A stretch of DNA of 64,000 nucleotides. It comes from an uncultured Thermoplasmata archaeon. GTDB taxonomy: Archaea; Thermoplasmatota; Thermoplasmata; Lutacidiplasmatales; UBA184. The stretch lies in the NCBI GenBank assembly GCA_963773945.1, contig CAVZDD010000005.1, positions 908,163-972,162 of the forward strand, given 5' to 3'. The position numbers and the translations under genes were made by a program. Below are positions 9,568-58,984 of the stretch, piece by piece; within the stretch, counting starts at the first letter, position 1, and each line of letters opens with the position of its first letter. The notes below the pieces were generated by a model, which was given only the letters and a program-made list of their open reading frames with translations, made no database searches and was not told the DNA's origin.

Positions 9568-9633
9568 GCGCTCCCGTCCCGCTGGCGACAAAGCCGCGAC
9601 AAGGGCTAAGGGGCTGAACGAGACGTGCGGGGT

Positions 9634-9708
9634 GGGCGTGTGGCCTAGTCTGGATAGGGCATCGGGTTCCTAACCCGAGGGTCGGGGGTTCAAATCCCCC
9701 CACGCCCG
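9634..9708 (+). tRNA. tRNA-Arg (anticodon CCT)
   Basis: Hand-folded cloverleaf: acceptor GGGCGTG/CACGCCC (7 bp), D-stem GCCT/GGGC, anticodon stem TCGGG/CCCGA with loop TTCCTAA, T-arm GGGGG-TTCAAAT-CCCCC, discriminator G; no encoded CCA. Confidence 0.85.
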
Positions 9709-9856
9709 ATTGGATTCGAACCCCCGGGCGGTTTGACTTCATCCACACACTTTCGTCTGTTTTGTGCGGGGTGTCTGCTGCATGCAGGCGTTCAAGCGTT
9801 GGGTCGCCCGAACGGGTCTGCCCCCTCCGGCAAGGGGTGGTTATATTTCCCTGAGG
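9684..9856. repeat. Copy 1 of an imperfect ~180-bp direct repeat (tRNA-Arg 3' end plus downstream sequence)
   Basis: Roughly 70-75% identical to 13606..13790, e.g. ggattcgaacccccgggcggtttgacttc vs cgattcgagctcccaggcggtctgactctc, and ttcaagcgttgggtcgcccgaacgggtctgcc vs ttcaagttggtgaaacccgaacaggtctgcac. Confidence 0.5.
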
Positions 9857-41516: not shown

Positions 41517-42544
41517 TTGTCACCGTGTGGCTCTCCGGGGAGAACCATCGACTTGCGCGGGCCGAACTCACCGGAGCGGCTCGGCGGCTCGGAGGACGCG
41601 AGGTCGAACCGTCCGTCGTGGTGGGGGTTCCCGGCCGGGCTACGGTCGAGCTCCCCGACCAGGCGGCGGCGATCCAACTCGCGAGCCGCCTCGCGCTCGC
41701 GCACCGTTGCGCCAAAGCCTGGCCCGAGATGGATCTCGAGGGTTTAGAGTCCGGCTTGAACGACGCCGGCGGGGCCCACAGCCCGGCGGCATTCCAATGG
41801 GTCTCGGGAAGCGCCGGAACGCGACCGCCAGAGATCCTACGACGATTGGGGGCGGCGTACCAGGCCGGGGGCGGCCGCATCTCCCTCGACCATCCCGCGA
41901 GACGGTTCTGGGTCGAACCGACTCCGGGCGATCGTATTCGTCTGTTCGAGGAGGTAGGGATCGTGGACCGCCCTTCGTTCTCCGCCCGACGCACGCCCAA
42001 GCTCCCGTTCCAGCGGCCGGTCACATTGGCCCCGAGGCTCGCCCGAGCCCTGGTGAACCTGGCCCGCGTCGGGCCCGGGGACCGAGTCGTGGACCCCTTT
42101 GTCGGCACCGGATCGCTCCTGCTCGAGGCGGCCCTGGTCGGCGCCCGGACTGTCGGGGTCGATGCGAGCGCCACGATGGTTCGCGGGGCGCTCGAGAACT
42201 TCGCTCATCTCGGGCAGACTCCGGAAATGCTTCGCCAGGCGGATGCCGCAGACGCCGCGGCGGAGTTCCCTCGAGAGGCATTCGATGCGCTAGTGACGGA
42301 CCCGCCGTATGGCCGGGCGTCGGGGACCCGGGGAGAGGATCCTGAACGGCTGTGGAGTCGGGCGCTCGTCGCCTGGTCGGAACGCGTTCGTCTAGGCGGG
42401 CGCCTCGCGATCGTGGTACCGGCGGGCAGCGAGGTTCCCCGGTTCGATGCGCGTCTCGAGCAGGTCATTCCGCAGCGAGTGCATCGAAGCTTGACACGAG
42501 AGTTCCGCGTCTACGTGCGGGAGCCCGTGAGCCTGGCCGGTTAA
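41513..42544 (+). CDS. Putative RNA (guanine-N2) methyltransferase, Trm11/TrmG10-like (UPF0020)
   Basis: VVDPFVGTGSLLLEAALVG (motif I), DALVTDPPYG (motif IV, N2-G/N6-A type), N-terminal THUMP-like region; internal ATG of ORF 41306..42544; 4-bp overlap with Mut7-C. Confidence 0.6.
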   Translation: MIVTVWLSGENHRLARAELTGAARRLGGREVEPSVVVGVPGRATVELPDQAAAIQLASRLALAHRCAKAWPEMDLEGLESGLNDAGGAHSPAAFQWVSGSAGTRPPEILRRLGAAYQAGGGRISLDHPARRFWVEPTPGDRIRLFEEVGIVDRPSFSARRTPKLPFQRPVTLAPRLARALVNLARVGPGDRVVDPFVGTGSLLLEAALVGARTVGVDASATMVRGALENFAHLGQTPEMLRQADAADAAAEFPREAFDALVTDPPYGRASGTRGEDPERLWSRALVAWSERVRLGGRLAIVVPAGSEVPRFDARLEQVIPQRVHRSLTREFRVYVREPVSLAG

Positions 42545-44109
42545 TAGACGAGGACCGAATCGGGACCCGCGACCCCGCTGCCGGCCTCGTTGCAGTACTG
42601 GGAGGCGGTGAAGCCCATCTCCAGACTCGCCGCCTGGGGATTCGTGTAGGTGATGTGAAGGATCCCGCTTTGGCCCGCCGGAAGGGCGAGGAATTCGGTG
42701 GACGGGAGGCTCCACGTGCCGACGCCCGTGAACGTCGTGAGATTCCCGTTGGGAAGGACGATGGTCCAACTCGAATTAGCTAAAAACGCGGACAGCGCCG
42801 GCCCGGAGAGTGGTCCCGCGCTTACATTGACGGTGACCTGAACGACCGCCGCCGTCAGACCGTATGCATGCTGCACCTGGTCGTGGTTCACCACGGTGGC
42901 GTTGATGCTCGCCGCGAGGCCAAACGAGGTCCCATTGATGGGCGCCGAAGAGAGATGTTCGAGGCCAAAACTGTCGGACGGCGTCGAGATAGGGACGAGC
43001 ACGAATCCCCCGATCAGGACCGCCACGACGAGCGCCCCAACGATCCGGCGTTGAACGCCCAGAGGGCTGACATCGTTGAGCGGGGGCGGATGTCGCACCC
43101 CGAGGAGAATGATCAAGGCGGCGAACAGCAGCCATCCCAGATACAGGGTCAGGAAGCCGATGAGGGCTAGGAAGATGACCGCGGCGTAACTCACGTAGCG
43201 GGCTCGATCCTTGAACAGAGCCCGGAAGACGTGGCCGCCGTCCAGTTGCCCGGCCGGGAGAAGGTTGATTGAGGTGACGAGGAGCCCGACCCAGCCGGCC
43301 AGGGCGAGTGGATGAAGACTGATGATGGCGGCGGCATTTGGGACGAAGAGGGAGAAGAAGTTCCAGACCAGGGGCAGGCCGATCAGCAGATCCCCATAGT
43401 TTACCCCCAGGATCGTGGGCCCGCAGTTGAGGGGCGATAGGACGGGGGCGTGGACGCTGAGGAATATTCCCGCGATCGTGACGGGAATCGCCACCACGAA
43501 TCCGGCCAGCGGCCCGGCGGCCCCGATGTCGAAGAGAACCTTTCGGCTGGGGATCGGCTCGCGGAGACTGATGAACGCGCCGAACGTTCCGAAGATCAGG
43601 TAGGGCGGAGGCACCGCCAGAAAGTACGGCAGCGAGGCTTCGACGTGGTGGTGCCGGGCCATCACATAGTGCGCGAGCTCATGGAGACCCAGGATCGCGA
43701 GCAGCGGCGCTGCGAAGTAGATCCCGCCCCACAGAAAGTCCGCAGCCACGAGGGTGGTGCTCCCGACGTAAGAGAGCCAGAAGAAAGATCCCGCGAACGC
43801 GGTCGATACAATCGTGGCCGCGAGAAGGGCAAGGTTGACCCAGAATCCCCAGGTGTTGCGCGGCCCCCGTCGAACGATCTCGATCGAATATTCTCCCTGA
43901 AGGTAGCGGAGCTGCGGGACATAGAACTTCGGCCAGAGGTCCTGCCGGAGGGCGTCGAATTTCTCCTCCAGGGAAGCCGGGTCGGCGTGGACGAGGAGAA
44001 CCAGCGAGACCGGCGTGATCCGGGTCTCGTAGACCGGGAAGAAGCGGGAGACCTCAGCCCGAAGCCAATCGAGTTCGGGGCCCGGCGGGGACGGCAGCGG
44101 CGCCGCCAC
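42541..44109 (-). CDS. Site-2 protease (M50 family) membrane metalloprotease with a C-terminal extracytoplasmic domain
   Basis: HExxH as LGLHELAHYVMARHH within TM helices, downstream LDGG-type motif (AGQLDGGH), multiple TM helices; 522 aa. Confidence 0.8.
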   Translation of the reverse strand: MAAPLPSPPGPELDWLRAEVSRFFPVYETRITPVSLVLLVHADPASLEEKFDALRQDLWPKFYVPQLRYLQGEYSIEIVRRGPRNTWGFWVNLALLAATIVSTAFAGSFFWLSYVGSTTLVAADFLWGGIYFAAPLLAILGLHELAHYVMARHHHVEASLPYFLAVPPPYLIFGTFGAFISLREPIPSRKVLFDIGAAGPLAGFVVAIPVTIAGIFLSVHAPVLSPLNCGPTILGVNYGDLLIGLPLVWNFFSLFVPNAAAIISLHPLALAGWVGLLVTSINLLPAGQLDGGHVFRALFKDRARYVSYAAVIFLALIGFLTLYLGWLLFAALIILLGVRHPPPLNDVSPLGVQRRIVGALVVAVLIGGFVLVPISTPSDSFGLEHLSSAPINGTSFGLAASINATVVNHDQVQHAYGLTAAVVQVTVNVSAGPLSGPALSAFLANSSWTIVLPNGNLTTFTGVGTWSLPSTEFLALPAGQSGILHITYTNPQAASLEMGFTASQYCNEAGSGVAGPDSVLVY

Positions 44110-44112
44110 GGC

Positions 44113-44439
44113 TTAGCCCGCCGCCGCGGCGGCCTTGGCCGCCTTTTGGGCCTTCTTGCCCCGTTCCTTCGCGGTGTACCCGGTCAGCGTCTCCAGGAAC
44201 CGGTTGTAGCGACGCACCGTCTCGGCGGCGACCTCGTTCGAGACTTTGGGATTCATCCGGAGCTCCACGATCAACTCTCCCTTTCCGATGCGCGTGATCA
44301 GGGAACCAATAGCCCCGTACCGGGTGGTCACGGCGTCCGCCGATCGCTCGGAGGCGCCGAATTCGGCATCGGCGGTGGCGGCGATTCGGTCGAGGGTCAA
44401 CTGGGCCCGGACCGCCGGGCGCACGCTGTAATTCCCCAC
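44113..44439 (-). CDS. Hypothetical conserved small protein (108 aa) with a Lys/Ala-rich C-terminal tail
   Basis: Coding-like composition, ends KERGKKAQKAAKAAAAAG; tightly packed between S2P and PPAT; no motif recognised. Confidence 0.4.
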   Translation of the reverse strand: MGNYSVRPAVRAQLTLDRIAATADAEFGASERSADAVTTRYGAIGSLITRIGKGELIVELRMNPKVSNEVAAETVRRYNRFLETLTGYTAKERGKKAQKAAKAAAAAG

Positions 44440-44543
44440 GGTGAGCCGTTCTATCTCTCTCCGACCTTAAGGTTGACCGGGGACTCGCTCCGTGGGTAAT
44501 CCCCCGACAGAGCGGAGGGACCGCTCCGAGGAGGGGGAACGGC

Positions 44544-44765
44544 TCAGACCGTCTCGATCTCGAAGAGAACCTGGTAGCCGCGGAGGAGACGAGTCACCTC
44601 ATCACTGAGGTCGAGCAGCTGGTCGGTCGTGGCCGGGCCGCGCCAGTCGTAGAGAAAATCGTAGTTTCCCTGGGTCGGGACGAATCCAAAGCCCACGAGC
44701 CGGTCCGCGATCTCCGACGGCTTGGCTCCCTCGCTGTGGAAGCTGACGCGGAGGTAGGTTTCCAT
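44544..44765 (-). CDS. Possible small hypothetical protein (73 aa)
   Basis: METYLRVSFHSEGAKPSEIADRLVGFGFVPTQGNYDFLYDWRG... has protein-like composition, but it is an internal start in an ORF that overlaps PPAT in another frame. Confidence 0.25.
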   Translation of the reverse strand: METYLRVSFHSEGAKPSEIADRLVGFGFVPTQGNYDFLYDWRGPATTDQLLDLSDEVTRLLRGYQVLFEIETV

Positions 44766-44791
44766 CGAGCGCACGACGGGCGGACCGTAGA

Positions 44792-45322
44792 TTAACTCTT
44801 CGTCGAAGTGGCTCGCGTACGAGCGGCCCACGTCCGGAGAAGATGCCCGTCCCGGTCGATCTCGCCGGCGCGGATGCGTCGGGAGGCGATCGGTCGACCG
44901 TCCTCCCCACGAACCTGCTGGACCACGCAGACCCGGAGCGGGGCGAGCCCCCGCCGCCGGCGTTCCGCGTTGATGGAACGAGCGGCTCGACGGGTCTCCT
45001 CCGAGAGGACCAGCAGGTCGGCGCCGGGACGGACCGAACCCCCCCACCGGTCGTTCAAGGCCACGATCGACCACCGACGTCGCCCGAACCGTAGCCGGAG
45101 GAACTTTCGAAGCGAGCGACGGCGGGTTTCGTAGGACTGCACGAGTCCGACCAGGGGCTTTCGTTCCTTCCGCACAAACTTGTCGGACGTGAGGCCGATC
45201 TTGACCTCCCTCGCGCGCTGGAACGCGGCCGCCAGTAGCGCGTGATGGCCCGAATGCAGATGGTCGAAGGTCCCGCCGAGAACGGCCACGCGGGACCGAC
45301 GCCCTGGAGTCACTCGAGCCAT
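44792..45322 (-). CDS. Archaeal phosphopantetheine adenylyltransferase (cytidylyltransferase-like, COG1019)
   Basis: VAVLGGTFDHLHSGHHALL (HxGH nucleotidyltransferase motif) and ISS-like region; 176 aa. Confidence 0.75.
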   Translation of the reverse strand: MARVTPGRRSRVAVLGGTFDHLHSGHHALLAAAFQRAREVKIGLTSDKFVRKERKPLVGLVQSYETRRRSLRKFLRLRFGRRRWSIVALNDRWGGSVRPGADLLVLSEETRRAARSINAERRRRGLAPLRVCVVQQVRGEDGRPIASRRIRAGEIDRDGHLLRTWAARTRATSTKS

Positions 45323-45822
45323 GGATGGGTGGGTCCCTGCCGTCCTCGTCGCCGGCGCCCCGGACTATCGACTTGGGGACCGCCGCGAACGCCGGCGCGC
45401 ATTCGGGTCCGCGTCGTCGGAGTCGTCTCCGGTGGGTTCGTCACCGGGCGTCCCCGAGCGGGTGAGCTCGGAGAGCGAATCCAGCTCCCGGTCAAGGTCG
45501 TCGGAAGGCGGTGGGGTTCGGGGCCGGGCCAGGAGCGTGGGGGCGCGGGCCTCCTCCGTGGCTCGGCGTTCCTCGGTCATCTGGGAGAGCTGCCGCACCA
45601 GCGTCAGCCAGACCCGACCCTGGTTGGCGATTGTGCCTTCGACCCGCTCCCGGATCTCCCGGGTCCGATCCGCTAGGTCGGTCTCGATGCGTCGTAGGTC
45701 GTGAGTAAACTCCCGCCGAAGCTGGGCGTACTTGAGGTCGGCCTCCGCCGTGCTGGCGGATCCGCGTTCGAGCTCGGAGAGCCGGGTCCAGGCCTTTCGA
45801 ACGACCGGCACCAGGCGGTCGG

Positions 45823-48549
45823 TCAGTACCACGATCTTTCGGTCGAGCTCCTCGAGTTCGGCCCGGATGGCGTCCTCGAGCCGGGTGTTGTCCCGGCTCG
45901 GTCCGCGACGTCGGTCAGGAGCGTTTCGAGGCGTTGCGTCAGCTCGGCATGTTCCCGGCCGAATCGTTCTTCGACGGCCATGGCCCGCAGGTCGATCAGG
46001 TGCTGAACGTCGGAGCGGAGACTCTCGGTGCTTCGCTGGAACTGGTCCTTGACGATGCGTTCGGTGGCGGCCACATCCGGCGCCTTGTTCAGCGAGGATT
46101 CCGTCTCCCCCTTGAGACGTGCCAGGAGCTCCAGGTACTTTTCGCGCTCCCGGTCCAGGCTCTCCCGGAGCTTCTGGTCGGAGGACCATTGAAGACGGAC
46201 CTGCAATTCGGCGACCGAGTGCATCTCGGAGTCGCGGAGTTCCTCCAGCTTGGCGTCGACCTTCCGGTCCCCGCGACCCTCGAGGACGCCGAGTTGCTCT
46301 TCGACGAGGCCGCTCGTGCGCGACTCGGCCTCCCGCAGGGCGGCGGCGACCTTCTCCTGGACCTCCCGGGCGCGGCCGTCGATCAGGAGGGACAGTCGGC
46401 GCTCGATCTCCTGGAGCTCTTTGGCTCGCCGTTGCTCGGCCTCGGTGATACGACTCTCCGCGGCGCCGCGGAGCTTCTGTTCGAGTTCCTTCCGCTGGGT
46501 CTCGTCCCGGTCCTGGGCCTCTCGCAAGTGGAGGTCGAGCTGGGCGACCAGCGCTCCTCGAAGATCCTCCTCGGAGGCCTGGGCCCGCGTCTTGACATCC
46601 GTCAGGGCCTGGGTCAACGAGTCGCGGAGCTCGGCTCGAATCTGCTCGGCCGACTGCTTGAGGGATTCCTCGCCCCGGGTCCGAAACTCCTGGATCTTCG
46701 GGTCGACGAGGTTGCGCACACCCTGGTCGAGTTCCTGGCTCACGATCGTGCGCAAGTCAGCCTGCACGCGTTCTTCGGTCTGGGTGATCCGCGTCGAAGC
46801 GTCCTGGCTCAGTCGAGCCTCCAGTTCCGCCGTACGGGCGAGCAGCCGGTCCGTGAGGGAACTCAGCGCTTGCTGTTGGAGCGCGGTCCACGTCGTGAAC
46901 CGTTGTTCCATGGAAGAACGGGCCTCCTTGAGCGCCTCGGCCTGGCGCGCCGCTTGGTCCGCCAGCGCCGGCTTGAGATGTTCCTGCACCGCCCCATCGA
47001 TACGGAGCGGGTCGATGGGCTCTGGAGGGCGAGGCGGAGGTATCGCCCGCATTCGCTGCTCGACGACGGTGTTGAAGCGTTCCGCGAGCTCGTCCTGGAA
47101 GGCCTTCGTCCACCCGGCCGGAGGAACGGGGTTGACGTTGGACAATCGCTCGTCGAGGTACCGCATCAGGTCGGCTTCGATCTGCCGACGTAGCGCTCCC
47201 TGATCGATGACGGGCCCGGGGGACGCCGGAGCGGTACCGGGTTCCGGGACTTTCTGAAGGGACGGGTCGTCCTTGACGGACATGGGGACCACCTCGACCT
47301 TGCTAGTGCGCTGGGTCGCCAGAGGACTCGTACCGCCGCGCTGGAGCCAGGGAGGAAGCTGTCCGGCCACCTGGGGGTCCGGCACCGGAACAGGGGGCGC
47401 CGGCGGAAGGTCCGAGGCCCGGATCTCCTCCGCGGGCTCCTCGCCGGCATGCGCCTGGAGGTACTCCTGAGCCCGGCGCGAGAGCTCGGGACTCAGCTCG
47501 AGCCGACGGCCCCGGGGTTTCTGCAAGAGGAGCGCGGTGCTCTCCATCGCGGTGGATAGGCGCCACATCTCCTTCCGACGGTCCTTGCCTCCTTGACGGT
47601 CCGGGTCCGCCAACCGCGCCCGGAGCGTTCGAAGCTCGACCCGGTCCACGCGCTCGGTGACCGGGGTCAGCTTCGCCGTCGACCGCTCACGCACGTACTG
47701 GACGACAAGGGGCGTGATCTCCTTGCCCTTACCGGCCGGGGACGGGATGCCGTCGGTCAGGTCGTAGAGGGTAACCGGCGCCTCTTCCCAGCTCTGCACC
47801 CGCTTCCGGTGACGTTCCCCGCCCGATTCCCCGCGCGGGACGCGCAGGACCGCGAGAGAGAGCGGCGTGGCCTCGGCGAAGTCGGCGAGGTTGGTCTTGG
47901 GCTCCGGTAGGAAATAGGGGAACGCGAGGATGGCCCCCAAGGACAACAGCGAGGCCGGGAGCGTACGAACGTACTCGAAGATCGTCTCCATCGTAGCTTC
48001 CCATTCCTCCGCCGCGATCAGGAGGACGGGCTCGGTCGAGCCCCGGAAGAACAGGAATCCCTCTCCGACCAGTGGGTAGAGCTTGAGGTCGGCGGGTGGC
48101 GGAGGCCGTTGATCGTGTCGGCCGCCGCCCATCGATTCGTACCACTTGAGCAGGGTCTCGCCGAAATTGCCGCTGGCCAGCAGGCGGCCCGTATCGAGGA
48201 CGAGCGTCTTCATGCCGAGACGCGGCCGGTCCTCCGTGGACAGGAACATGCGGCCGAGGCAGGTGTAGGACCCGCCGTACGCCGGATAGAGGAACAGGTT
48301 CCGATAGTACGACAGGGGGAGGGCAGGGTCGGGGTCCCAGTAGTCCTGGGTGTCCGCGACGTTGACGGCGAGGTTGCCGACGATGCGGATTGCGTCGAGC
48401 GTTTCCTGGTACCCCGGGAAATCGTTCGGAAGGGCGGTGTAGCCCGGACTCTCGGCTTCGTTATCGACCTGCCGGCACCAGACCACGGCGATGGGTTCGG
48501 TGGCTCCGCCAGAGGTCGCGTCGGCGGCCTTGGGGCCCGGGGTTGCCAT
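45823..48549 (-). CDS. Giant hypothetical protein: ~330-aa N-terminal alpha/beta domain, Pro-rich linker, >500-aa continuous coiled-coil; last gene of the vWA operon. Probably continues to ~45365 after a 1-nt frameshift at 45892..45896.
   Basis: Start ATG 48549..48547 overlaps the upstream stop (TAATG). Heptad-rich E/R/L/Q/A sequence from ~residue 520 to the end. The coiled-coil continues in frame +1 (DNTRLEDAIRAELEELDRKIVVLTDRLVPVV..., track ORF 45365..46189). Confidence 0.6.
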   Translation of the reverse strand: MATPGPKAADATSGGATEPIAVVWCRQVDNEAESPGYTALPNDFPGYQETLDAIRIVGNLAVNVADTQDYWDPDPALPLSYYRNLFLYPAYGGSYTCLGRMFLSTEDRPRLGMKTLVLDTGRLLASGNFGETLLKWYESMGGGRHDQRPPPPADLKLYPLVGEGFLFFRGSTEPVLLIAAEEWEATMETIFEYVRTLPASLLSLGAILAFPYFLPEPKTNLADFAEATPLSLAVLRVPRGESGGERHRKRVQSWEEAPVTLYDLTDGIPSPAGKGKEITPLVVQYVRERSTAKLTPVTERVDRVELRTLRARLADPDRQGGKDRRKEMWRLSTAMESTALLLQKPRGRRLELSPELSRRAQEYLQAHAGEEPAEEIRASDLPPAPPVPVPDPQVAGQLPPWLQRGGTSPLATQRTSKVEVVPMSVKDDPSLQKVPEPGTAPASPGPVIDQGALRRQIEADLMRYLDERLSNVNPVPPAGWTKAFQDELAERFNTVVEQRMRAIPPPRPPEPIDPLRIDGAVQEHLKPALADQAARQAEALKEARSSMEQRFTTWTALQQQALSSLTDRLLARTAELEARLSQDASTRITQTEERVQADLRTIVSQELDQGVRNLVDPKIQEFRTRGEESLKQSAEQIRAELRDSLTQALTDVKTRAQASEEDLRGALVAQLDLHLREAQDRDETQRKELEQKLRGAAESRITEAEQRRAKELQEIERRLSLLIDGRAREVQEKVAAALREAESRTSGLVEEQLGVLEGRGDRKVDAKLEELRDSEMHSVAELQVRLQWSSDQKLRESLDREREKYLELLARLKGETESSLNKAPDVAATERIVKDQFQRSTESLRSDVQHLIDLRAMAVEERFGREHAELTQRLETLLTDVADRAGTTPGSRTPSGPNSRSSTERSWY

Positions 48550-49250
48550 TACTTGTCTCCGGCCGGCTCCTTGGCGAGCACGCGCTCGCAGATCCGGGCG
48601 AGAGGTAACGGAGTGTTCACCATGACCGGGATACCGGCGCCCGAGGAACCGCCGGGCATGCCCTCCACCGGGGCCGCTTCGGCCGTGCCGGAATCGGTCC
48701 AGAGCAGCGGTCGGCCCTCCCCGGTGGAGACGGCCGAGGAGACCAGGAAGACATCGTCCTTCGTGGAGATCCCCTGCCCGTCGTGGGCAACGAGAATCGT
48801 ACCCATACCGGCCCCGTCGCGGCGGAGCAGGAACTCCTGGGAGTCGAAGGTGCTCTGATAGGCCCTGTCCTTGAGGACATGGTCGATCTCGCCATAGAAA
48901 TCTTTGAGAAGATCCGCCTTCGAGATCGCGATCACGAGCGGGATGTTCCGGGCCTTGACGTACCGGAAGACGCCCCGGGCGAGGTTGACCTGCTGCGCCT
49001 GGTCGCGGAGCGAGGGCAGCGACGGCGACAGCAGGAGGATGATTCCATCGGCTTCCACAACGAACCGGCCGAGCAGGGTCAGTCCTCGACGCCAGAGCTC
49101 TTGCCGGTCCGGTCGCCAGGTCTCGAAGTGGGGGATCACCCGACACATCTTGTCGTCGATCTGGCCGTCGGCGGAGGTGAGCCAGAGCCGGTCGTAGGTG
49201 AAGTAATCCGAAATGATCCCGCCGGCCTCGTCGATCGTGTGCATCATCAT
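48549..49250 (-). CDS. Hypothetical protein with GTPase-like G3/G4 motifs (HTIDEAGG, EADGIILLL, ISKAD); third gene of the vWA operon
   Basis: Start is a triple ATG (MMMHTIDEAGG) overlapping the P-loop gene stop (ATGA). Internal ATG of track ORF 48549..49805; the upstream part of that ORF is the out-of-frame shadow of 49247..49738. Confidence 0.5.
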   Translation of the reverse strand: MMMHTIDEAGGIISDYFTYDRLWLTSADGQIDDKMCRVIPHFETWRPDRQELWRRGLTLLGRFVVEADGIILLLSPSLPSLRDQAQQVNLARGVFRYVKARNIPLVIAISKADLLKDFYGEIDHVLKDRAYQSTFDSQEFLLRRDGAGMGTILVAHDGQGISTKDDVFLVSSAVSTGEGRPLLWTDSGTAEAAPVEGMPGGSSGAGIPVMVNTPLPLARICERVLAKEPAGDK

Positions 49251-49738
49251 CGGCCGGGAACCGGGGCCCCCGGGTCCTTGCTGCCGTATCGGAAGCGCAT
49301 TTTCATCTCGACGAACTGGTTGAATTTCGTCGGTAGCGGATACTTGGTGAGGACGCCCTGCTCGTCGCGGGAGGCGGCCAGCTCGACCCAGAGCTTCTTC
49401 GGGTCCTCCATCGCCCGGTTGACGTAGTAGCGGGTCGTGGCCTCGAGGCTCCCCTCGGGATCCGTGGGGTCGGTGGTCTCGTAGGTTGTCTCCTCCAGGA
49501 TCACGTCCGAGTCGAGGTCGCCGTAGATCGGCATCGAGTTCGAGTCGGCGCGGGCCGGCACGTAGGTGATCGGAAGATTCAGTCCGAAATGGCCGGAGAG
49601 GAACCGGAAGTAGGTCGTCTTGCCCGACGCCGGGATCCCGACCACGGCGATCCGGGCAGCGGCGGCCGACGGCCCGGTCTCGTCCGACTTGCGCGGCGCG
49701 CGCTTGACCTTCGTCTTGGGGGTGGTCTTGACCGTCAT
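49247..49738 (-). CDS. Small P-loop NTPase (163 aa) with a Lys-rich N-terminal tail
   Basis: Walker A IAVVGIPASGKTTY; N-terminal MTVKTTPKTKVKRAPRK. Confidence 0.6.
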   Translation of the reverse strand: MTVKTTPKTKVKRAPRKSDETGPSAAAARIAVVGIPASGKTTYFRFLSGHFGLNLPITYVPARADSNSMPIYGDLDSDVILEETTYETTDPTDPEGSLEATTRYYVNRAMEDPKKLWVELAASRDEQGVLTKYPLPTKFNQFVEMKMRFRYGSKDPGAPVPGR

Positions 49739-49761
49739 CGTTTACGTCCCCCCGAAGCCCC

Positions 49762-51468
49762 TCAACGCATCTCCGCGAGGCATATCTCCATAAAATCCAG
49801 CGCACCGTCGGCGATAGGGTCCCGTTGCGTGTTATTGAGACGTATATCCTGCAATAGCCCGAAGATCTCCTCGACGGAGTTCTCGTGCTGGATGGCGCCC
49901 TCCATCAGGGACTGGTCGTTGCCCCCGACCCGGGCGAGCTGGTAGGTCGTTCGGAGTTCGAGGAGCTTTTCGAAAATGGTCTCCAGCTGATGGCCGAGTT
50001 CCGGTTCCTTGCGCTCCAGACGGTGCTGGGTGTCGTCCATGAACCGGACAAGGGTCTCGGTTTCGGAATCGTTCTGGATCCGGCTCTGGAGGAGGGCGAG
50101 GCGACGGCTGATGCGTCCCCGGGAGTCGGCAGGCAATCGGTCGGCCTCGACCCAGGCATGCAAGAGGGACCGAGCGGCCTCGACCACCTCCCCGCGAGCG
50201 TAGTGGATCCGGGCCTCCCAGTAGAACCGGGTCAACGCGGGCAGGAGCGCCTGCGCACGGAACAGGCGGTTCATCGCGGTCGCGTAGTCGCGCGCGACGA
50301 ATGCCTCGACCACTTCGCCCAAGGGGCCGTACCGTTCCTTGAGATGCGGCGGCAGGGTGCCACCCTGAAGTTCCAGGACGTCGACTTCGGAGGGTAACGG
50401 GCCGGTCCCGGCGTCGGAGGACGGCGGGGGGAGATCCTTCCGGTTCTTGAGTTGGGTCAACGTGGCGTGTTCGCCGGGCGCCTTGAGAGCCTTCGCGGCC
50501 CGGGCGGCGTGTTCCGCCAGCTCCTCAGGATGCAGCTCCTCGAAGGGGCGGGTCCCCTCGTAATCGACGTCGATGAAGGAGTTCACCATTTGGGAGAACA
50601 GGTCGGTGCTCGTGGCGACTTCCTGGTACGTTACTTCGGAGGCGATGCCGGCAGCCTGGGCCCGGCCCCGAAGCTGTTCCACGAGGCCGTTCATCTGCCC
50701 CGAATCGACGCCCTTGTCCCGTTCGGAACCGCTGCCAATCCCGATGATCCGGAGCGTGAGCTGCGAAGAGTTGGGGAGAACGTGAGGCACGAGGTCGATC
50801 CGACGGCTCATCTCGGGCGTGAGCGGTTCGGAAGCGGGGGCCCGGAAGCGGCTCGAGGCGTTGTCCCACCCATCCGTGACCAGGACGAGAGTACCGACAA
50901 CCTCGCCCGACGGCTTGCGGAGCAGGTCCGCTCCGAGTGCGATCCCATCCCAAATCGCGGATCGACCCGAGGGAGCCAGCATCGAGATGAGACTCTCGAT
51001 GTACGGTAAGTTCTCGTGGCGGATTTCGGTGAGCGGCACCGCGACCCGGGCGCTGTCCGTGAACGTCACGAGTCCGAAGAATGCGCCCGTCGCCTCTGCG
51101 TTCTCGAGAATGCGGTACACCGCGGTTCGAGCCACCTCGATCTTCCGACGCTCGCCTTGGATGCCAGAGGGGTCCGGCAACGGAGCGAGCATGCTCTTGG
51201 AAAGGTCGAGCACGAGCACGTGCCGGGGCCGGACCACCGGCACTGGAGGAGTCTGAAGATCGTCTGCGATCATAAGGGGTTGACCTACGAGAAGTCGACG
51301 GCGGCCCGTCGGCGCGTCTCGCTGCTCCCGGTCACCTCTCGTTTTAGGGTCCGAAAGGTATATGGTCCTTGTCCCAGCGGCGGCGTTCGGAATCTGCCCC
51401 TGGCTCGGCGGTAGCAGGCCCCACACGCCGGCGCCGTCCGGCCGCAGATAGGGCTTTAAGGAGGACAC
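49762..51468 (-). CDS. von Willebrand factor A (vWA) domain protein with a C-terminal alpha-helical (TPR-like) region; first gene of the operon
   Basis: MIDAS motif VLVLDLSKSM (DxSxS), downstream T (VTFTDSARV) and D (LVLVTDGWDN) MIDAS residues; C-terminal 250 aa helical (WEARIHYARGEVVEAARSLLHAW...). Confidence 0.75.
   Translation of the reverse strand: MSSLKPYLRPDGAGVWGLLPPSQGQIPNAAAGTRTIYLSDPKTRGDREQRDAPTGRRRLLVGQPLMIADDLQTPPVPVVRPRHVLVLDLSKSMLAPLPDPSGIQGERRKIEVARTAVYRILENAEATGAFFGLVTFTDSARVAVPLTEIRHENLPYIESLISMLAPSGRSAIWDGIALGADLLRKPSGEVVGTLVLVTDGWDNASSRFRAPASEPLTPEMSRRIDLVPHVLPNSSQLTLRIIGIGSGSERDKGVDSGQMNGLVEQLRGRAQAAGIASEVTYQEVATSTDLFSQMVNSFIDVDYEGTRPFEELHPEELAEHAARAAKALKAPGEHATLTQLKNRKDLPPPSSDAGTGPLPSEVDVLELQGGTLPPHLKERYGPLGEVVEAFVARDYATAMNRLFRAQALLPALTRFYWEARIHYARGEVVEAARSLLHAWVEADRLPADSRGRISRRLALLQSRIQNDSETETLVRFMDDTQHRLERKEPELGHQLETIFEKLLELRTTYQLARVGGNDQSLMEGAIQHENSVEEIFGLLQDIRLNNTQRDPIADGALDFMEICLAEMR
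51454..51461 (+). promoter_or_regulatory. TATA-like element (CTTTAAGG) ~29 bp upstream of the S17e ATG (leaderless), in the divergent region shared with the vWA operon
   Basis: gggCTTTAAGGagg. Confidence 0.35.
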
Positions 51469-51485
51469 GGGTCGGCGCGCCGCGC

Positions 51486-51710
51486 ATGGGCAGCATTCGG
51501 CAGACGTACATCAAGCGGGTCGCGATCGATCTGATTCGGCACTACCCCGAATCCTTCAACGGCGACTTCGCCCACAACAAGGAGAAGGTCCTCGAGTTGA
51601 CCGACCTCCGCGTAGACGTCAATGGGACCCCGACGGTCGTCTACAAGAAACTCGCGAACCGCATCGCGGGCTATGCCACGCGGTACGTCAAGCGCCGGCG
51701 CGCCACGTAG
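51486..51710 (+). CDS. rps17e: 30S ribosomal protein S17e
   Basis: MGSIRQTYIKRVAIDLIRHYPESFNGDFAHNKEKVLELT...NRIAGYATRYVKRR, near-canonical S17e; internal ATG of ORF 51369..51710. Confidence 0.9.
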   Translation: MGSIRQTYIKRVAIDLIRHYPESFNGDFAHNKEKVLELTDLRVDVNGTPTVVYKKLANRIAGYATRYVKRRRAT

Positions 51711-52097
51711 AAGGAGCGCGCGCGCGCGTGCCCGGTCTCTCTTCTCCTACGCTCGTTGATTTTCTTGAGGCCGAGCGCGAGCGCCGGGGCTGGGTGGGTC
51801 AGGTCCGTCGTCTTCGCGGAGCCCGTCTCCTGACCAACGCCCGCTATCGGAGGCTCATGTGGGCCAACCAGATACTCGTGGGCACGACGGAACCCCCCGT
51901 CGACTGGCAGGAAATTCAGGCGCAGGCCGAGCCAACGTTCCGATCGCTGGGCGTGAAAGGTCGTCGCGTCATGCTCTTTGGGGACGAGGTCCGGCGCCGG
52001 CTCGGAAGGGCCCTTGTCCGTCGACGGGTTCCGGGAGCGGACCATCTGGCTCCTGGCCTTCCGCGGCCTGACCTCCGCCCAGCCGAATCCCCGGGTG

Positions 52098-52523
52098 ATG
52101 ATCCGTCTCGTGGACCCGTTCCTCCGACCGGCCTGGTTCACGCTCTCCTACCGGGTCGAACAGGAGACCGCCCGACCCGGCGAATCCGTGTCGGACTGGG
52201 CGAGCTTCTACTCGAGCTTAGCGGAACGACCGGCCCACCGGACCTATGCGGGTTTTCTGGGCGATACCATGGTGGGTTCGGTGGACCTCGCGAAGATCGG
52301 CTCTCTCGCCTCGATCGATCACGTCCAGACGGCGCCCGAGTGGAGAGGCCAAGGCGTCGCGACGACGCTGGTGCTCCGGGCCACCGACGAGGCCGTGCGG
52401 GACGGGGCCCGGGGCATCCAACTGACCACGCACTCCCCAGCCCTCACCGAGCAGCTCTACCGTCCCTGCGGCTTCGAGACCATCAGTCGGTTGTCCATTT
52501 TCGAACGGGGGATCTCCGAGTGA
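52098..52523 (+). CDS. GNAT family N-acetyltransferase; a possible ~120-aa N-terminal extension (51728..~51980) is in another frame
   Basis: Acetyl-CoA site VQTAPEWRGQGVATTLV (Q/R-x-x-G-x-G/A) and the beta4-alpha3 region; the core domain starts at MIRLVDP. Confidence 0.7.
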   Translation: MIRLVDPFLRPAWFTLSYRVEQETARPGESVSDWASFYSSLAERPAHRTYAGFLGDTMVGSVDLAKIGSLASIDHVQTAPEWRGQGVATTLVLRATDEAVRDGARGIQLTTHSPALTEQLYRPCGFETISRLSIFERGISE

Positions 52524-52532
52524 CCCCGGGAC

Positions 52533-53198
52533 CTACTCCAGGATCTGGAAGCCTTCCTGGAGATGGACGAACTCAACCGGTGTCGTGAGCGCGCCGGCGA
52601 GAATTCCGCGAGTGTTGGCGGTCACGCAAGCGCCGACGATCGGAACACCGAAATTCGCCGTGGAACGGTGGACCGGCACTTGAAGGGTGTCGCGCAGCAC
52701 GCCCGCCTCGGCTTCGGTAGCGCGGGGATGGACCACGACGCCCTTGTTCGTCGCCACTGCGGCCATTCCGACCGTGCCCAGCCCAGCGACGGTACCCCGG
52801 GCGACCCGGACTCGCAACGCTTCGCCGATTCGGGCGGCGGCGGATTCGGAGAGGCCCGGATGGACCAGCGCACCTAGGTCGTTCGCGAGGACGTTGTTGC
52901 CGAGGGCATTCTGCAGGGTGGGCACAACGGTCAGGGGGCCCATCGAGGCGAGGTGGTGGCGTTCGCGGGCTCCCGGTTCTTCCGCTACGATCGCGCCGGA
53001 CGAATTGAGGGCGAGGAGAGAGCCCACGAGCTCCGAGTCGAGGACCGTCGTCCGGATCACGGGCGCGCCGAACAGGCGTTCGATTTCGTGGCCGAGCGCG
53101 TCGGGCAGAGACGGGGGCGCGACGACGCCGCGTTCGGACACCCGGAGATAGACCCCGAGGTAGGGACTTCCCGCGATCGATGCACGGTTGACCGGCAC
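52533..53198 (-). CDS. eif6: Translation initiation factor 6 (aIF6)
   Basis: Five-fold pseudo-repeat with NRASIAGSPYLGVY at the N-terminus and a full-length eIF6 fold; start assigned to an in-frame GTG. Confidence 0.85.
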   Translation of the reverse strand: MPVNRASIAGSPYLGVYLRVSERGVVAPPSLPDALGHEIERLFGAPVIRTTVLDSELVGSLLALNSSGAIVAEEPGARERHHLASMGPLTVVPTLQNALGNNVLANDLGALVHPGLSESAAARIGEALRVRVARGTVAGLGTVGMAAVATNKGVVVHPRATEAEAGVLRDTLQVPVHRSTANFGVPIVGACVTANTRGILAGALTTPVEFVHLQEGFQILE

Positions 53199-53220
53199 TC
53201 CGTCGCTCCGAGCCGGCGGC

Positions 53221-53517
53221 CTACGTTTCCTCGGCGAGGTCGACTTCAATCAGGCCATCTTCGAACCGGATCGCCTTCACGCGGATCTTCGACGGGATGT
53301 GCGCCGCGCCGTGTTGCCAGATGAACACGTTGAGCCGGGGATCGATCCAGATGTTCTCGGGGGTGCCGTGCATATGGCGGACCATGAACCGGCGCACGGT
53401 CTCCAGAGCGTGCCCGGCCCGCCGGTGGCGAGCGGGGCGGTGCTTGCTCGCCCGGAGCGGGACAACGAACTCGCGTTCGAGTTCTTCGGTGCGCGTGCGA
53501 TCGGGGGTGCGAGCCAT
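53221..53517 (-). CDS. rpl31e: 50S ribosomal protein L31e
   Basis: REFVVPLR...RRAGHALETVRRFMVRHMH...IWIDPRLNVFIWQHG...KIRVKAIRFEDGLIEVDL. Confidence 0.85.
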   Translation of the reverse strand: MARTPDRTRTEELEREFVVPLRASKHRPARHRRAGHALETVRRFMVRHMHGTPENIWIDPRLNVFIWQHGAAHIPSKIRVKAIRFEDGLIEVDLAEET

Positions 53518-53527
53518 CGTTCAACTC

Positions 53528-53686
53528 CTACGGCTGCAGGTGGCCCCGCTTCCAGGTACGTCGCTTGGGGTGACGAGTGACGTGACGGTTCGTCCGTTGC
53601 ATGACCCAGGCCGGAACCCGCCGGTTGCTTTTGACCTTGCGGAACATGCGGGTCTTACGCGCCAAGCTCTTGCGACGTGTTGCCAT
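53528..53686 (-). CDS. rpl39e: 50S ribosomal protein L39e
   Basis: [52 protein letters not shown]; internal ATG of ORF 53528..53782. Confidence 0.85.
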
Positions 53687-53708
53687 CGATGTGCCTTCCG
53701 ATCCTCGT

Positions 53709-54071
53709 TCAACGGCGGGTGATGTGAATCTCCCGCTTTTCCGGCATGATGCGCTCCAAGAGGGCGCGCAGAGTCTCATCATCGATTTGCCGTTGGAGTC
53801 GGCCCGACGCGGCGAGGGACATGATCTGCTGCTCGATCGAAGCGGCGACGTCCGGTTTCGCGAGACGGATCCGGGCCAGTCGTTCCCGGGCCTCCGGCGT
53901 CAGAAGTCGACGCATGACCTCGAATCGTTCCGCCTCTCTCCGCTGCGCCTCCGCGTTCTGCTGGGCGACCGCCATCGGGTCCGGACCTGCTCCGCGGGCC
54001 TGCATCTCTTGGAGTTCGCGAACGCGTCGTTGCCGCAGCGCGGTAAGCTCGGGGTCCTCCTGATACGCCAT
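53709..54071 (-). CDS. PDCD5/TFAR19-like dsDNA-binding protein (MTH1615 family)
   Basis: ...[40 protein letters not shown]...LRALLERI; its conserved position between S19e and L39e. Confidence 0.75.
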
Positions 54072-54103
54072 CGCTCTTCCGTCGTGGGTCAGTTAGGTAC
54101 GTC

Positions 54104-54559
54104 TCACAGATACTTGGCGAGTCGGGTGTCCGTCGCCGCCAGTCCTTTCAGCAATTCCTTGGCCAGTTGGTCGAGCAGCCGGTGACCGTCGGGAGTGAGG
54201 ATCCTCCCACCATTCTTCTGCTTGCGGACGAGGCCCGCGCTCTCGAGCTGCTGGAGAATCTCGCGAATGATCGATCGGGAGCCGCTTCGCGCGTGGTAAG
54301 GCGCCGATCCTCGGTCCCGGCTCCCTCCGTATTCCGAGGACAGACGTTGAACCCCGCGGGCCCCTCGGATGTACAACTTCCGCAAAACCGAAGCGCTCCG
54401 CAAGTACCACCAACCGGTCTGGTAGGGTGCGCTTTGAGTGTGGACCCCCGTGCGGGCGAAGGCGGCCCACTCGGGCGGCCGGACCGCCTTTCGGCTCTCG
54501 AGCTCGTGAGCCAGCCGGGGAAGCAGCAGAGAGGTCGGAACGTCCGTGGGATGAGCCAT
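54104..54559 (-). CDS. rps19e: 30S ribosomal protein S19e
   Basis: PPEWAAFARTGVHTQSAPYQTGWWYLRSASVLRKLYIRG...HARSGSRSIIREILQQLESAGLV; internal ATG (MAHPTDVP) of ORF 54104..54616. Confidence 0.85.
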   Translation of the reverse strand: MAHPTDVPTSLLLPRLAHELESRKAVRPPEWAAFARTGVHTQSAPYQTGWWYLRSASVLRKLYIRGARGVQRLSSEYGGSRDRGSAPYHARSGSRSIIREILQQLESAGLVRKQKNGGRILTPDGHRLLDQLAKELLKGLAATDTRLAKYL

Positions 54560-54725
54560 GCGCGCGGCGCCACCTGCCCCGCCTATATAAACCGACTGGG
54601 GAGCGCACCGTGGCAAACCGCCGGGAACCTACTCGAATGGCCCGGCGGGCCGGGGGAAGAGGAGTCTCCGCAATTCCTAAGCGTCTGAAACAGACCATCC
54701 CGGGTGGTTTGCGGTTGTAATCCCG

Positions 54726-55340
54726 ATGTCGATCGAAAAGGCGGCAGTGGTCCTCGCGGCGGGCGCTTCTACGCGGTTCGAGGGCCGGCCGAAGGCATTG
54801 CTGAGCGTTTACGGCGAACCGGCGGTCGCCCGCATCGTCCGAATCTGTCGAGAGGAAGGGTTCGTTCCCCGAGTCGTCGTTGGGCTTCATTCCGCCGCCA
54901 TCCGCGGGGCTCTGCCCTCGCCCCTTCCAGATGTCATCGAGAATCCCGAATGGGCTCGGGGTCGGACCGGCTCCATTCAAAGGGGGCTAGACGGCCTCGG
55001 CTCGGAGACGCCGGTTCTCTTGTGGCCGGTCGACCATCCGTTCGTTCAAGCTAAGACCCTTCGCCGGCTCCGTACGACAGCGGAACGCGACGCCATGGGA
55101 GTCTGGTTCGTCCCATCGTTCGAGGGTTTCGGAGGTCATCCGGTCTTGCTCGAGCCCCCGGCCATTCAGAGGATCCGTTTCCTCGCTCCGGCGATGCCGC
55201 TGCGAATGCTTCTCCCCGAATTTGGTCCCCAGGTCGTGCGGGTTCCCGTGGACGATCCTGGAGTGAGGGCGAACGTCGACACCGAGGACGACTACCGGCG
55301 CTTCCGGTCGTTACAATCGTCGGGGGCGGATGCGCCGTGA
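54726..55340 (+). CDS. MobA/MocA-like molybdenum-cofactor nucleotidyltransferase
   Basis: VVLAAGASTRFEG (LAAGxSxRxG motif), WPVDHPFV; first gene of the Mo-hydroxylase cluster. Confidence 0.65.
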   Translation: MSIEKAAVVLAAGASTRFEGRPKALLSVYGEPAVARIVRICREEGFVPRVVVGLHSAAIRGALPSPLPDVIENPEWARGRTGSIQRGLDGLGSETPVLLWPVDHPFVQAKTLRRLRTTAERDAMGVWFVPSFEGFGGHPVLLEPPAIQRIRFLAPAMPLRMLLPEFGPQVVRVPVDDPGVRANVDTEDDYRRFRSLQSSGADAP

Positions 55341-56170
55341 ATCGTCGGATCGCCCGGGAGGTAGTGCGATTGATGGATTTGCACGTCCCATTCGTACGGG
55401 CCACGGTCGTGAAGACGGTCGGTTCGGTCCCCGGAAAAGTTGGCGCCACCATGGTGCTGAGACCCGATGGAACCTTCCTCGGCACGATCGGCGGTGCCGG
55501 GCTTGAGGAACAGGTCAAGGACCATGCCCGCTCAGCCTTCTCGAGCGGGAAGAGCGACCTCTACCACTTTGATTTGCAAGCCTGGAAGCCGGGAGGGCTC
55601 CCCAGTCTCTGCGGTGGGTCCGTAGACATCGCCGTGGAGTACATCGCCCCGCGGCCGAACCTCCTGCTCTGGGGCGGCGGGCACGTCGCGGAAGCGATCG
55701 CGGGGCTGCTCCCCACGTTGGAGTACGATTTTAGCGTCGCCGACGACCGCCCGGAATGGGTGACCGCGCAACGATTCCCGGACGCCGACCGACGCGAATC
55801 GGTGACGCCGGCGGAAGTCTGGACCGTGTTTGATCCGGGGGAGTTTTCTCATCTCTACTTGCTCGGCTACGACGCGAAGAAGGACCTCGAGCTCCTCGCG
55901 AGCTCGCTCGACCGGTTCCCCGGATACATCGGGCTCATCTCGAGCGCACCCAAGCGGACGCACATGTTTGCCGAGCTGAGGCGTCGAGGCGTCTCTTCGA
56001 AGGTTCTCGCCCGAGTTCACGCTCCCATCGGCCTGGCCATCGGAGCGGAGAGCCCGGCAGAGATTGCCGTCAGCGTGGTCGGGGAGATCATTCAGTCGCT
56101 TCGGGAACCAGTGAGACGACGTTCGGCCGTGGGCCGGGGCGCCGCTCCGGCGCGGGAGTTGTCGCCCTGA
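55337..56170 (+). CDS. XdhC/CoxI-family molybdenum-hydroxylase maturation factor
   Basis: N-terminal XdhC_CoxI (ATVVKTVGSVPGKVGATMVL) plus a C-terminal Rossmann-like domain (LLLWGGGHVAEAIAGL); 4-bp overlap with MocA. Confidence 0.75.
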   Translation: MNRRIAREVVRLMDLHVPFVRATVVKTVGSVPGKVGATMVLRPDGTFLGTIGGAGLEEQVKDHARSAFSSGKSDLYHFDLQAWKPGGLPSLCGGSVDIAVEYIAPRPNLLLWGGGHVAEAIAGLLPTLEYDFSVADDRPEWVTAQRFPDADRRESVTPAEVWTVFDPGEFSHLYLLGYDAKKDLELLASSLDRFPGYIGLISSAPKRTHMFAELRRRGVSSKVLARVHAPIGLAIGAESPAEIAVSVVGEIIQSLREPVRRRSAVGRGAAPARELSP

Positions 56171-56217
56171 CGACCCAGCAGGTCCTTCGGCTGGACATCA
56201 ATGGCCAACCGATCGAA

Positions 56218-58968: not shown

Positions 58969-58984
58969 GGTCCGGAGGCCATCG

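Follow-up and report, generated by a model that had tools for sequence, protein, structure and literature searches.

A conserved three-gene operon in Thermoplasmata for a vWA/MIDAS protein, a putative divergent GTPase, and a protein with a predicted longin-DENN-like head

Gene structure of the locus

We analyzed a 64,000-nucleotide stretch of DNA from an uncultured Thermoplasmata archaeon (contig CAVZDD010000005.1, positions 908,163 to 972,162 of the forward strand; hereafter, the window), in which a tightly packed, codirectional operon on the minus strand encodes a von Willebrand factor A (vWA) protein with a metal ion-dependent adhesion site (MIDAS), a putative small GTPase, and a long protein designated here protein X. 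A first-pass annotation, made from the letters of the window alone, had recognized the compact operon and described it as four translationally coupled minus-strand genes. As deposited, the window does contain four minus-strand open reading frames (ORFs), at 49762..51468, 49247..49738, 48549..49250, and 45823..48549, and the overlaps between them are present, but the gene count was wrong: the locus consists of three genes, for the vWA protein, the GTPase, and X. The reference for gene structure was contig L001, which is 99.8% identical to window positions 44193..59738 and carries three intact genes encoding the vWA protein (503 amino acids [aa]), the GTPase (396 aa), and X (1061 aa). Across more than 150 loci, neither the three-gene content nor the set of downstream genes varies.

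A base-by-base comparison of the window with L001 revealed 27 substitutions and four 1-nt indels in 15.5 kb, and each of the four indels breaks a gene. Two lie in the operon. A deletion at 49263, where a C5 run is read as C4, splits the GTPase gene (48549..49738, minus strand) into the ORFs 49247..49738 and 48549..49250, exactly in the β2-β3 hairpin of the encoded protein. Another at 45899, where GG is read as G, breaks the X gene (45365..48549, minus strand), leaving 45823..48549 plus a second frame ending at 45365; the first-pass annotation had treated 45365..48549 as one ORF, but in the window the frame changes at 45899 and the intact 1061-aa ORF is found in L001. The ATGA stop/start overlap at 49250..49247 is likewise present in the sequence; since the GTPase gene is split by a 1-nt deletion, the coupling read from it is a by-product of the frameshift.

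Conceptual fusion of 49247..49738 and 48549..49250 yields a 396-aa protein that matches 354 database proteins. Among those listed, 120 of 120 are single proteins, mostly of 385 to 400 aa, and every named one is from a Thermoplasmata metagenome-assembled genome (MAG). The closest, P0001, is encoded on L001 and shows 99% identity over 396 aa. A split GTPase made of two complementing polypeptides was considered and ruled out, given that the homologs are all single proteins and the split is a 1-nt deletion; the split NTPase switch of the first-pass annotation gives way to one 396-aa GTPase, and its caveat that one GTPase might have been broken by an indel was correct.

Of 80 related loci, 78 carry the vWA gene as one ORF, and the X gene is unbroken in 65 of 68. 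Broken vWA or X copies elsewhere occur only on long-read MAG contigs, with the breaks at other positions. Loci L002, L034, L059, L064, and L081, which are "MFD...bin" and "contig_" records, carry frameshifts of their own in the vWA or X genes, which suggests that indels are a systematic problem of such assemblies. Because all four indels in the window break genes and similar breaks are confined to long-read MAG contigs, we read the window frameshifts as assembly errors rather than biology. Programmed frameshifting was also considered and ruled out, as a near-identical strain lacks the shift and other copies, in long-read MAGs only, break elsewhere. That the GTPase and X genes are true pseudogenes or split products in this strain is very unlikely. 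The indels do stand in the deposited sequence, and a truncated 908-aa X product (P0258) is on record from a 991-kb contig; against this, four frameshifts accompany merely 27 substitutions in 15.5 kb, all four fall in conserved genes, including a dehydrogenase subunit, and the other broken copies, at different positions, all come from long-read MAGs. In a look-up, P0258, the window's truncated X product, was not on record as a called gene. At about one frameshift per 4 kb, the overlaps, split genes, and fusions of the window are not to be taken at face value.

Conservation of the operon

When one genome per GTDB species was scanned, the GTPase turned up in 154 species, with at least 69% identity in the best 80 listed, and all 80 of those listed are annotated as Thermoplasmata, Thermoplasmatota, Thermoplasmatales, or Lutacidiplasmatales. 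The gene-neighborhood comparison foreseen in the first-pass annotation showed the order vWA, GTPase, X to be kept in every related locus with enough flank (86 loci). Among 80 more loci from metagenomes, X is directly preceded by the GTPase gene in all 61 that leave room for it, and the vWA gene lies upstream of the GTPase gene in 49 of 49. A sister lineage, found by means of the X head, has the same triad, with a GTPase 61 to 64% identical and an X head 40% identical to those studied here. Downstream of its triad, as in the window, are genes for DUF2116, a CTP_transf_like protein (probably PPAT), a 73-aa ORF, and an M50 protease. The upstream context of the triad differs in the sister lineage (L083-L086) and likewise in L002, and the argument for a housekeeping role that had been drawn from adjacency to rps17e is not supported.

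The GTPase and X genes share a TAATG stop/start overlap (48547..48551, minus strand), correctly noted in the first-pass annotation. At least 60 of 80 related loci have a one-base overlap of the GTPase stop with the X start, as TGATG or TAATG, far beyond chance; judged by this recurrence, the overlap represents real translational coupling of the GTPase and X. Scans for sigma-70 promoters and terminators are uninformative here, the host being archaeal. No PADLOC defense-system model matched the locus, and viral contigs gave no match. The locus is a real, strongly conserved, uncharacterized module in one group of soil archaea and, as read from its distribution and synteny, a vertically inherited, clade-specific core module of Thermoplasmata, comprising Lutacidiplasmatales and the sister lineage.

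The vWA/MIDAS protein

The first gene (49762..51273, minus strand) encodes a 503-aa protein, intact in L001, with matches to Pfam families VWA_2 (E = 5.8e-9, 37 bits, cutoff 27) and VWA (E = 7.2e-8, 33.3 bits, cutoff 23.8). The vWA domain spans approximately aa 17 to 200. The DxSxS motif of the MIDAS, DLSKS (aa 23 to 27; 51193..51207, minus strand), is invariant in alignment A4, and among 78 orthologs the residues D23, S25, S27, and D134 (in TDGWDN) are at least 98% conserved, with the position of the MIDAS Thr occupied by an invariant Ser, S105. The family match and the conserved site bear out the earlier identification of gene 1 as a vWA protein with a MIDAS. The conserved C-terminal region of about 260 aa that follows the domain gave no family match and no TPR match in a profile search, and the TPR-like tail attributed to it finds no backing. 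The nearest solved sequences in a PDB sequence search were BatB-like vWA domains, with weak matches (E = 0.002). No MoxR-type AAA+ ATPase, DUF58, or TerD gene lies beside the vWA gene in any inspected neighborhood, in agreement with what had been observed in the window.

The vWA gene begins with the ATG at 51273, which is also the start called in L001; the ORFs of three other genomes inspected extend no more than about 36 to 54 nt upstream of the conserved region. This start leaves a 212-bp spacer (51274..51485) to the divergent rps17e (51486..51710, plus strand) in place of the 17-bp promoter region that the two genes had been thought to share. The vWA and GTPase genes are separated in the window by the 23-bp gap noted earlier (49739..49761), and in related loci the gap is usually 8 to 24 nt.

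A putative divergent GTPase

We accept the product of gene 2, on the strength of its motifs, as a divergent small switch GTPase. The motifs G1 to G5 are all present in order and are invariant in alignment A1, comprising 22 GTPase sequences, which is the basis of motif invariance here. They are the G1 or Walker A motif GIPASGKT (aa 34 to 41; 49616..49639, minus strand), the G3 or Walker B motif DEAGG (aa 170 to 174; 49218..49232, minus strand), the G4 motif SKAD (aa 273 to 276; 48912..48923, minus strand), in which S273, K274, and D276 are invariant, and the G5 motif SSA (aa 334 to 336). A candidate G2 threonine is T137 in YPLPTK (49328..49330, minus strand), just before the β2-β3 hairpin and assigned from its position relative to β2 and β3. 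The first-pass annotation had seen the Walker A sequence GIPASGKTT and the G3 and G4 motifs HTIDEAGG and ISKAD, all of which are real, but the Lys-rich stretch it placed in a tail is N-terminal. The protein has a polybasic N terminus and large insertions between G1 and G2 and after G3 (switch II). In G3, the Walker B Asp is followed by a Glu, and the position of Ras Q61 is an invariant Gly, leaving the protein without the catalytic Gln; on its own, the GTPase would hydrolyze GTP poorly.

Beyond these motifs, the protein resembles little on record. Neither of its two ORFs in the window (49247..49738 and 48549..49250) nor the X ORF 45823..48549 matched any Pfam or NCBIfam family. Weak GTP_EFTU and RsgA matches cover the G4 region of the GTPase, and curated GTPase profiles (Ras, Arf, Roc, MMR_HSR1, Gtr1_RagA, and similar) gave just subthreshold P-loop or G4 fragments. 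Assignment as a GPN-loop GTPase (ATP_bind_1) was rejected: all 22 members match that family at E values of about 2e-3 to 0.1, but over the P-loop alone (profile positions 1 to 23). A PDB sequence search returned nothing significant, and hhalign of the family against H-Ras and Arf1 gave no signal beyond the P-loop. Searched against 1.84 billion representative proteins, the GTPase profile found its own family alone, as one full-length cluster plus fragments. Two large proteins also matched the profile in several stretches, P0163 (3137 aa) in 19, the best at positions 143 to 200 around DEAGGIISDYFTYDRLW, and P0164 (1385 aa) in 5, the best at positions 90 to 123; these may be spurious repeat matches to YD/RHS-like repeats. 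An AlphaFold2 (AF2) model of the GTPase reached a predicted local distance difference test (pLDDT) score of 42 with 22 close homologs, and the family offers no more divergent sequences with which the alignment could be deepened. The model leans, tentatively, to the Arf/MglA/Rag group.

Protein X and its predicted fold

Homologs of X are 980 to 1015 aa long, and the sister-lineage orthologs are 555 to 561 aa. In alignments, a conserved head of some 350 aa is followed by a Pro-rich linker. The AF2 model of a short ortholog, P0145, built from 113 sequences, has a pLDDT of 81, exceeding 90 for most of the head. It contains a ββαβββα unit of longin topology (aa 12 to 134), four β-α units (aa 170 to 258), and a helical domain (aa 271 to 335), followed by long helices; the order characteristic of a DENN module, longin, three-layer α/β, and all-helical, is present in the model. 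In window X, the corresponding predicted parts are a longin-like domain of the same ββαβββα topology at approximately aa 18 to 140 (48130..48498), a central cDENN-like α/β domain of four β-α units at approximately aa 155 to 265 (47755..48087), and, from the model of the ortholog, an all-helical dDENN-like domain at approximately aa 281 to 357 (47479..47709), all on the minus strand. The predicted nature of the "globular head" of the first-pass annotation, as a longin-DENN-like GTPase-regulator module, had been missed.

In a Foldseek search of the P0145 model against the PDB, the sole match below 1e-3 was chain C of the C9orf72:SMCR8:WDR41-ARF1 complex (E = 1.4e-4, 404 columns). Weaker matches were to the Lst4 longin domain, a Lokiarchaeota longin domain, and GATOR1, and the best structural matches of the X model are C9orf72, DENND1A, DENND10, FLCN, and NPRL2. 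At the sequence level, the DENN, uDENN, dDENN, folliculin, and longin Pfam families gave no match at E values up to 10 with 18 X members plus the window protein, hhalign of the X family against C9orf72 and NPRL2 gave no head alignment, and a PDB sequence search with the X head found nothing significant. Because sequence similarity to DENN or longin families is lacking, the X head is predicted to be DENN-like by fold alone.

Conservation within the head is concentrated in the longin-like domain, which holds 30 of the 46 invariant head residues, compared to 11 in the α/β domain. The best-conserved motifs of X also lie there. One, WCRQVDNEAESP, forms the predicted β1-β2 loop and ends in Ser-Pro just before β2; the other, GRMFLSTEDRPRLGxKT (with R100, R108, and R110), forms the β4-β5 hairpin. 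In P0145, R102 and R104, which correspond to R108 and R110 of window X, are placed at the β4-β5 loop, and S27-P28 immediately precedes β2, in an SP(G) rather than a GP motif. In eukaryotic longin GTPase-activating proteins (GAPs), a GP motif just before β2 adjoins the catalytic Arg finger (PMC12290439), and in the C9orf72-SMCR8-ARF1 structure the finger comes from the longin domain of SMCR8, whose loop touches switch II of ARF1 (PMC8213707). The modeled parallel in loop position between X and the Arg finger of longin GAPs is suggestive.

C-terminal to the head, the Pro-rich linker (approximately 47250..47440, aa 370 to 430), for the rest variable, carries a PPWLQR motif and, nearby, VPVSxSDDPS, both conserved in long and short forms; these could be a docking site. 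A central helical, coiled-coil-like region follows at approximately aa 450 to 884 (45899..47200, minus strand, by composition profile), rich in E, R, Q, L, and A and with few Pro or Gly residues from about aa 550. This middle part of about 450 aa is missing from the 555- to 561-aa sister-lineage orthologs. The first-pass annotation had made a giant coiled coil a core feature of the system; given that the short sister-lineage X lacks it, the coiled coil is, by sequence comparison, a lineage-specific insertion or elaboration. The conserved C-terminal helical module (approximately aa 885 to 1000; 45551..45898, minus strand), with KAWTRL and QGRVWLTLVRQL motifs, is about 120 aa long, aligns with the C terminus of the short-form orthologs, and is modeled as long helices. 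The tail (45368..45550, minus strand) is Pro rich, then acidic, then basic, ending in RRRSRR in window X and RRRxRR in the A3 consensus.

A proposed GTPase switch and its rivals

The interpretation that we favor, and consider fairly probable, is that the three-gene operon, inherited vertically, encodes a GTPase switch in which a dimeric longin-DENN-like protein, probably a GAP, regulates the GTPase and the MIDAS protein serves as an adaptor, and is not a defense system. X, translated from the overlapping next gene, would place its N-terminal 350 aa as a longin, α/β, and helical module, and its long C-terminal helices would probably dimerize it, so mimicking the FLCN-FNIP2 and C9orf72-SMCR8 longin-DENN complexes. 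The longin face of X would bind the switch regions of the GTPase and act as a GAP, for which the candidate catalytic residue is the invariant Arg R108 or R110 in the β4-β5 loop, adjoining the Ser-Pro-ending loop before β2. The vWA protein, through its MIDAS, would bind a carboxylate of a partner, either a component of the module or a target, and would couple the switch to a cellular output. X and its GTPase are coupled in the genome, by adjacency and the conserved stop/start overlap; action of X on the GTPase, a physical complex, GAP rather than guanine nucleotide exchange factor (GEF) activity, and dimerization of X are each putative. Both the GTPase and X have a polybasic end, a hint of association with membranes or nucleic acid.

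Several points weigh against this proposal. X has no sequence-level link to any DENN or longin family by Pfam or hhalign; the model is that of an ortholog with a head 42% identical to that of window X; the equivalence of R108 and R110 to the Arg fingers of FLCN, NPRL2, and SMCR8 is one of loop position and not of superposition; and the low confidence of the GTPase model (pLDDT 42) makes the leaning to the Arf/MglA/Rag group unreliable.

The same architecture could operate with X as a GEF acting through its central cDENN-like α/β domain, in the manner of DENND1-type Rab GEFs or the proposed Asgard DENN modules. We regard this as unlikely, given that the invariant positions gather in the longin loops (30) and not in the α/β domain (11), that the top structural matches are GAP-type complexes, and that a GTPase with DEAGG and no catalytic Gln would need help with hydrolysis. 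These three features together are why GAP is preferred over GEF. Another reading is that of an NTPase-gated conflict or defense system, as the first-pass annotation had entertained, either a distant relative of the DO-GTPase/GAP1 systems or a vWA-centered system with a coiled-coil sensor or effector. In its favor, the Glu that follows the Walker B Asp in G3 is a trait described for DO-GTPases, whose systems have GAP1 downstream of the GTPase and, in some neighborhoods, vWA genes (PMC7159879), and 5 of the 22 GTPase members give weak DO-GTPase2 Pfam matches. Those matches, with E values of 0.04 to 0.28, span only 14 P-loop residues (30 to 43), and the GAP1-N, -M, and -C families are unmatched; kinship with DO-GTPase/GAP1, pursued from the Glu in Walker B and the gene order, was rejected when the Pfam match proved to be P-loop only. 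The conflict reading is also opposed by the nil PADLOC and viral results, by the absence of variable effector genes, by a fixed position with conserved downstream housekeeping genes, and by the very high conservation of a GTPase at least 69% identical across an order. Because the triad is strictly vertical and its synteny invariant, we consider this reading refuted for practical purposes and give it only a very small probability.

An equally small probability attaches to the triad being a metallochaperone or maturation module for a nearby molybdenum hydroxylase, with the vWA protein acting like CoxE and the GTPase replacing the MoxR-type CoxD. A cluster with Ald_Xan_dh, FAD_binding_5, Fer2, XdhC/CoxI, and MobA-like genes does lie about 3 kb off in this lineage, and CoxD-CoxE is a known vWA-NTPase pair (PMC7159879). 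However, ribosomal protein genes intervene in this lineage, and the sister lineage (L083-L086) has the triad without such a cluster nearby. The GTPase resembles small switch GTPases and not G3E metallochaperones, and a longin-DENN-like partner would be unprecedented in metal center assembly. A bolder form of the GTPase switch, which we think rather doubtful, is that the triad includes a complete longin-DENN-type regulator module in a non-Asgard archaeal lineage, so diverged as to be visible to structure prediction alone, working with an Arf/Sar/Rag-like GTPase and a vWA partner as a core machine such as a membrane-associated or growth control switch. If that were true, DENN-type regulation would predate the split of Asgard archaea and eukaryotes or would have passed between archaeal phyla.

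Likeness to known systems

The eukaryotic longin-DENN GAPs, C9orf72-SMCR8 (an Arf GAP), FLCN-FNIP2 (a RagC/D GAP), and, for the longin part, Nprl2-Nprl3 of GATOR1, offer a close precedent. Unlike them, X has no detectable sequence similarity to known longin-DENN proteins, and its GTPase is an orphan family with large insertions; the eukaryotic complexes are heterodimers, whereas X would be a homodimer held by its coiled coil. The third component here is a MIDAS vWA protein in place of WDR41 or Ragulator, and the host is a euryarchaeal lineage without known endomembranes. Among archaea, an Asgard operon has been described that combines a LAMTOR1-like roadblock protein, a Rab-like GTPase, and a DENN-domain protein (Liu et al., bioRxiv 10.1101/2020.10.19.343400). 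It resembles the triad in joining a small GTPase, a DENN-module protein, and a third accessory protein. The Asgard proteins are recognizable by sequence as DENN and Rab-like, and those of the triad are not; the third gene encodes a roadblock protein there and a vWA/MIDAS protein here, in Thermoplasmata rather than Asgard archaea.

The prokaryotic Ras-like GTPase MglA with its roadblock-fold GAP, MglB, is a further close precedent. MglB is a small single-domain dimer; in X, DENN-like and helical domains and a long coiled coil come on top. The catalytic Gln and intrinsic Arg of MglA are missing from the DEAGG of the triad GTPase, and MglAB operons are mobile and widespread, in contrast to a triad confined to one clade. 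In the vWA-MoxR and BatA-E systems, too, an NTPase shares an operon with a vWA protein whose MIDAS is conserved, but the triad has no AAA+ MoxR or DUF58, its NTPase being a small GTPase. If the GTPase is indeed Sar/Arf-like, its pairing with a vWA protein would loosely recall Sec23/24-Sar1. The DO-GTPase/GAP1 systems (Kaur et al. 2020) have variable effectors and a patchy, mobile distribution, and the triad has neither.

DENN modules and longin-type GAPs count among the signature proteins of eukaryotes and have so far been traced only to Asgard archaea (bioRxiv 10.1101/2020.10.19.343400; PMC12290439). Our literature search found no report of DENN-like proteins in Thermoplasmata. A strictly conserved Thermoplasmata operon in which this kind of fold is joined with an orphan GTPase and a MIDAS protein would extend the known reach of this regulatory logic, and the triad would offer a compact three-protein system for the direct study of GAP or GEF chemistry and of the role of the vWA partner.

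Surroundings in the window

The G+C content of the window is 60 to 68%. Immediately downstream of the triad, the genes at 42541..45322, which are kept with it even in the sister lineage, include the CTP_transf_like gene, probably PPAT (44792..45322), and the 73-aa ORF; further downstream genes kept with the triad are a DUF5611 gene (44113..44439) and an M50 site-2 protease gene (42541..44109). On the other side, an extra G at 52003 relative to L001 splits a gene for a 264-aa GNAT acetyltransferase (approximately 51728..52523, plus strand) into the overlapping ORFs 51728..52588 and 51978..52523. A conserved cluster of archaeal translation genes on the minus strand (52533..54600) encodes S19e, a PDCD5-like double-stranded-DNA-binding protein, L39e, L31e, and eIF6.

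About 3 kb from the triad, at approximately 54700..59738, lies an aerobic-type molybdenum hydroxylase cluster of the CO dehydrogenase/xanthine dehydrogenase family, with genes for a FAD-binding subunit, a molybdenum cofactor large subunit, a 2Fe-2S small subunit, XdhC/CoxI, and a MobA-like protein. It adjoins the triad in this lineage and not in the sister lineage. In the region at approximately 56196..58968 (plus strand), a C missing at 56586 fuses in frame the 2Fe-2S small-subunit gene (148 aa in L001) and the gene for the 774-aa molybdopterin large subunit, giving an artificial 916-aa ORF at 56218..58968. The sole RNA gene detected in the 64-kb window is tRNA-Arg(CCT), at 9633..9709.

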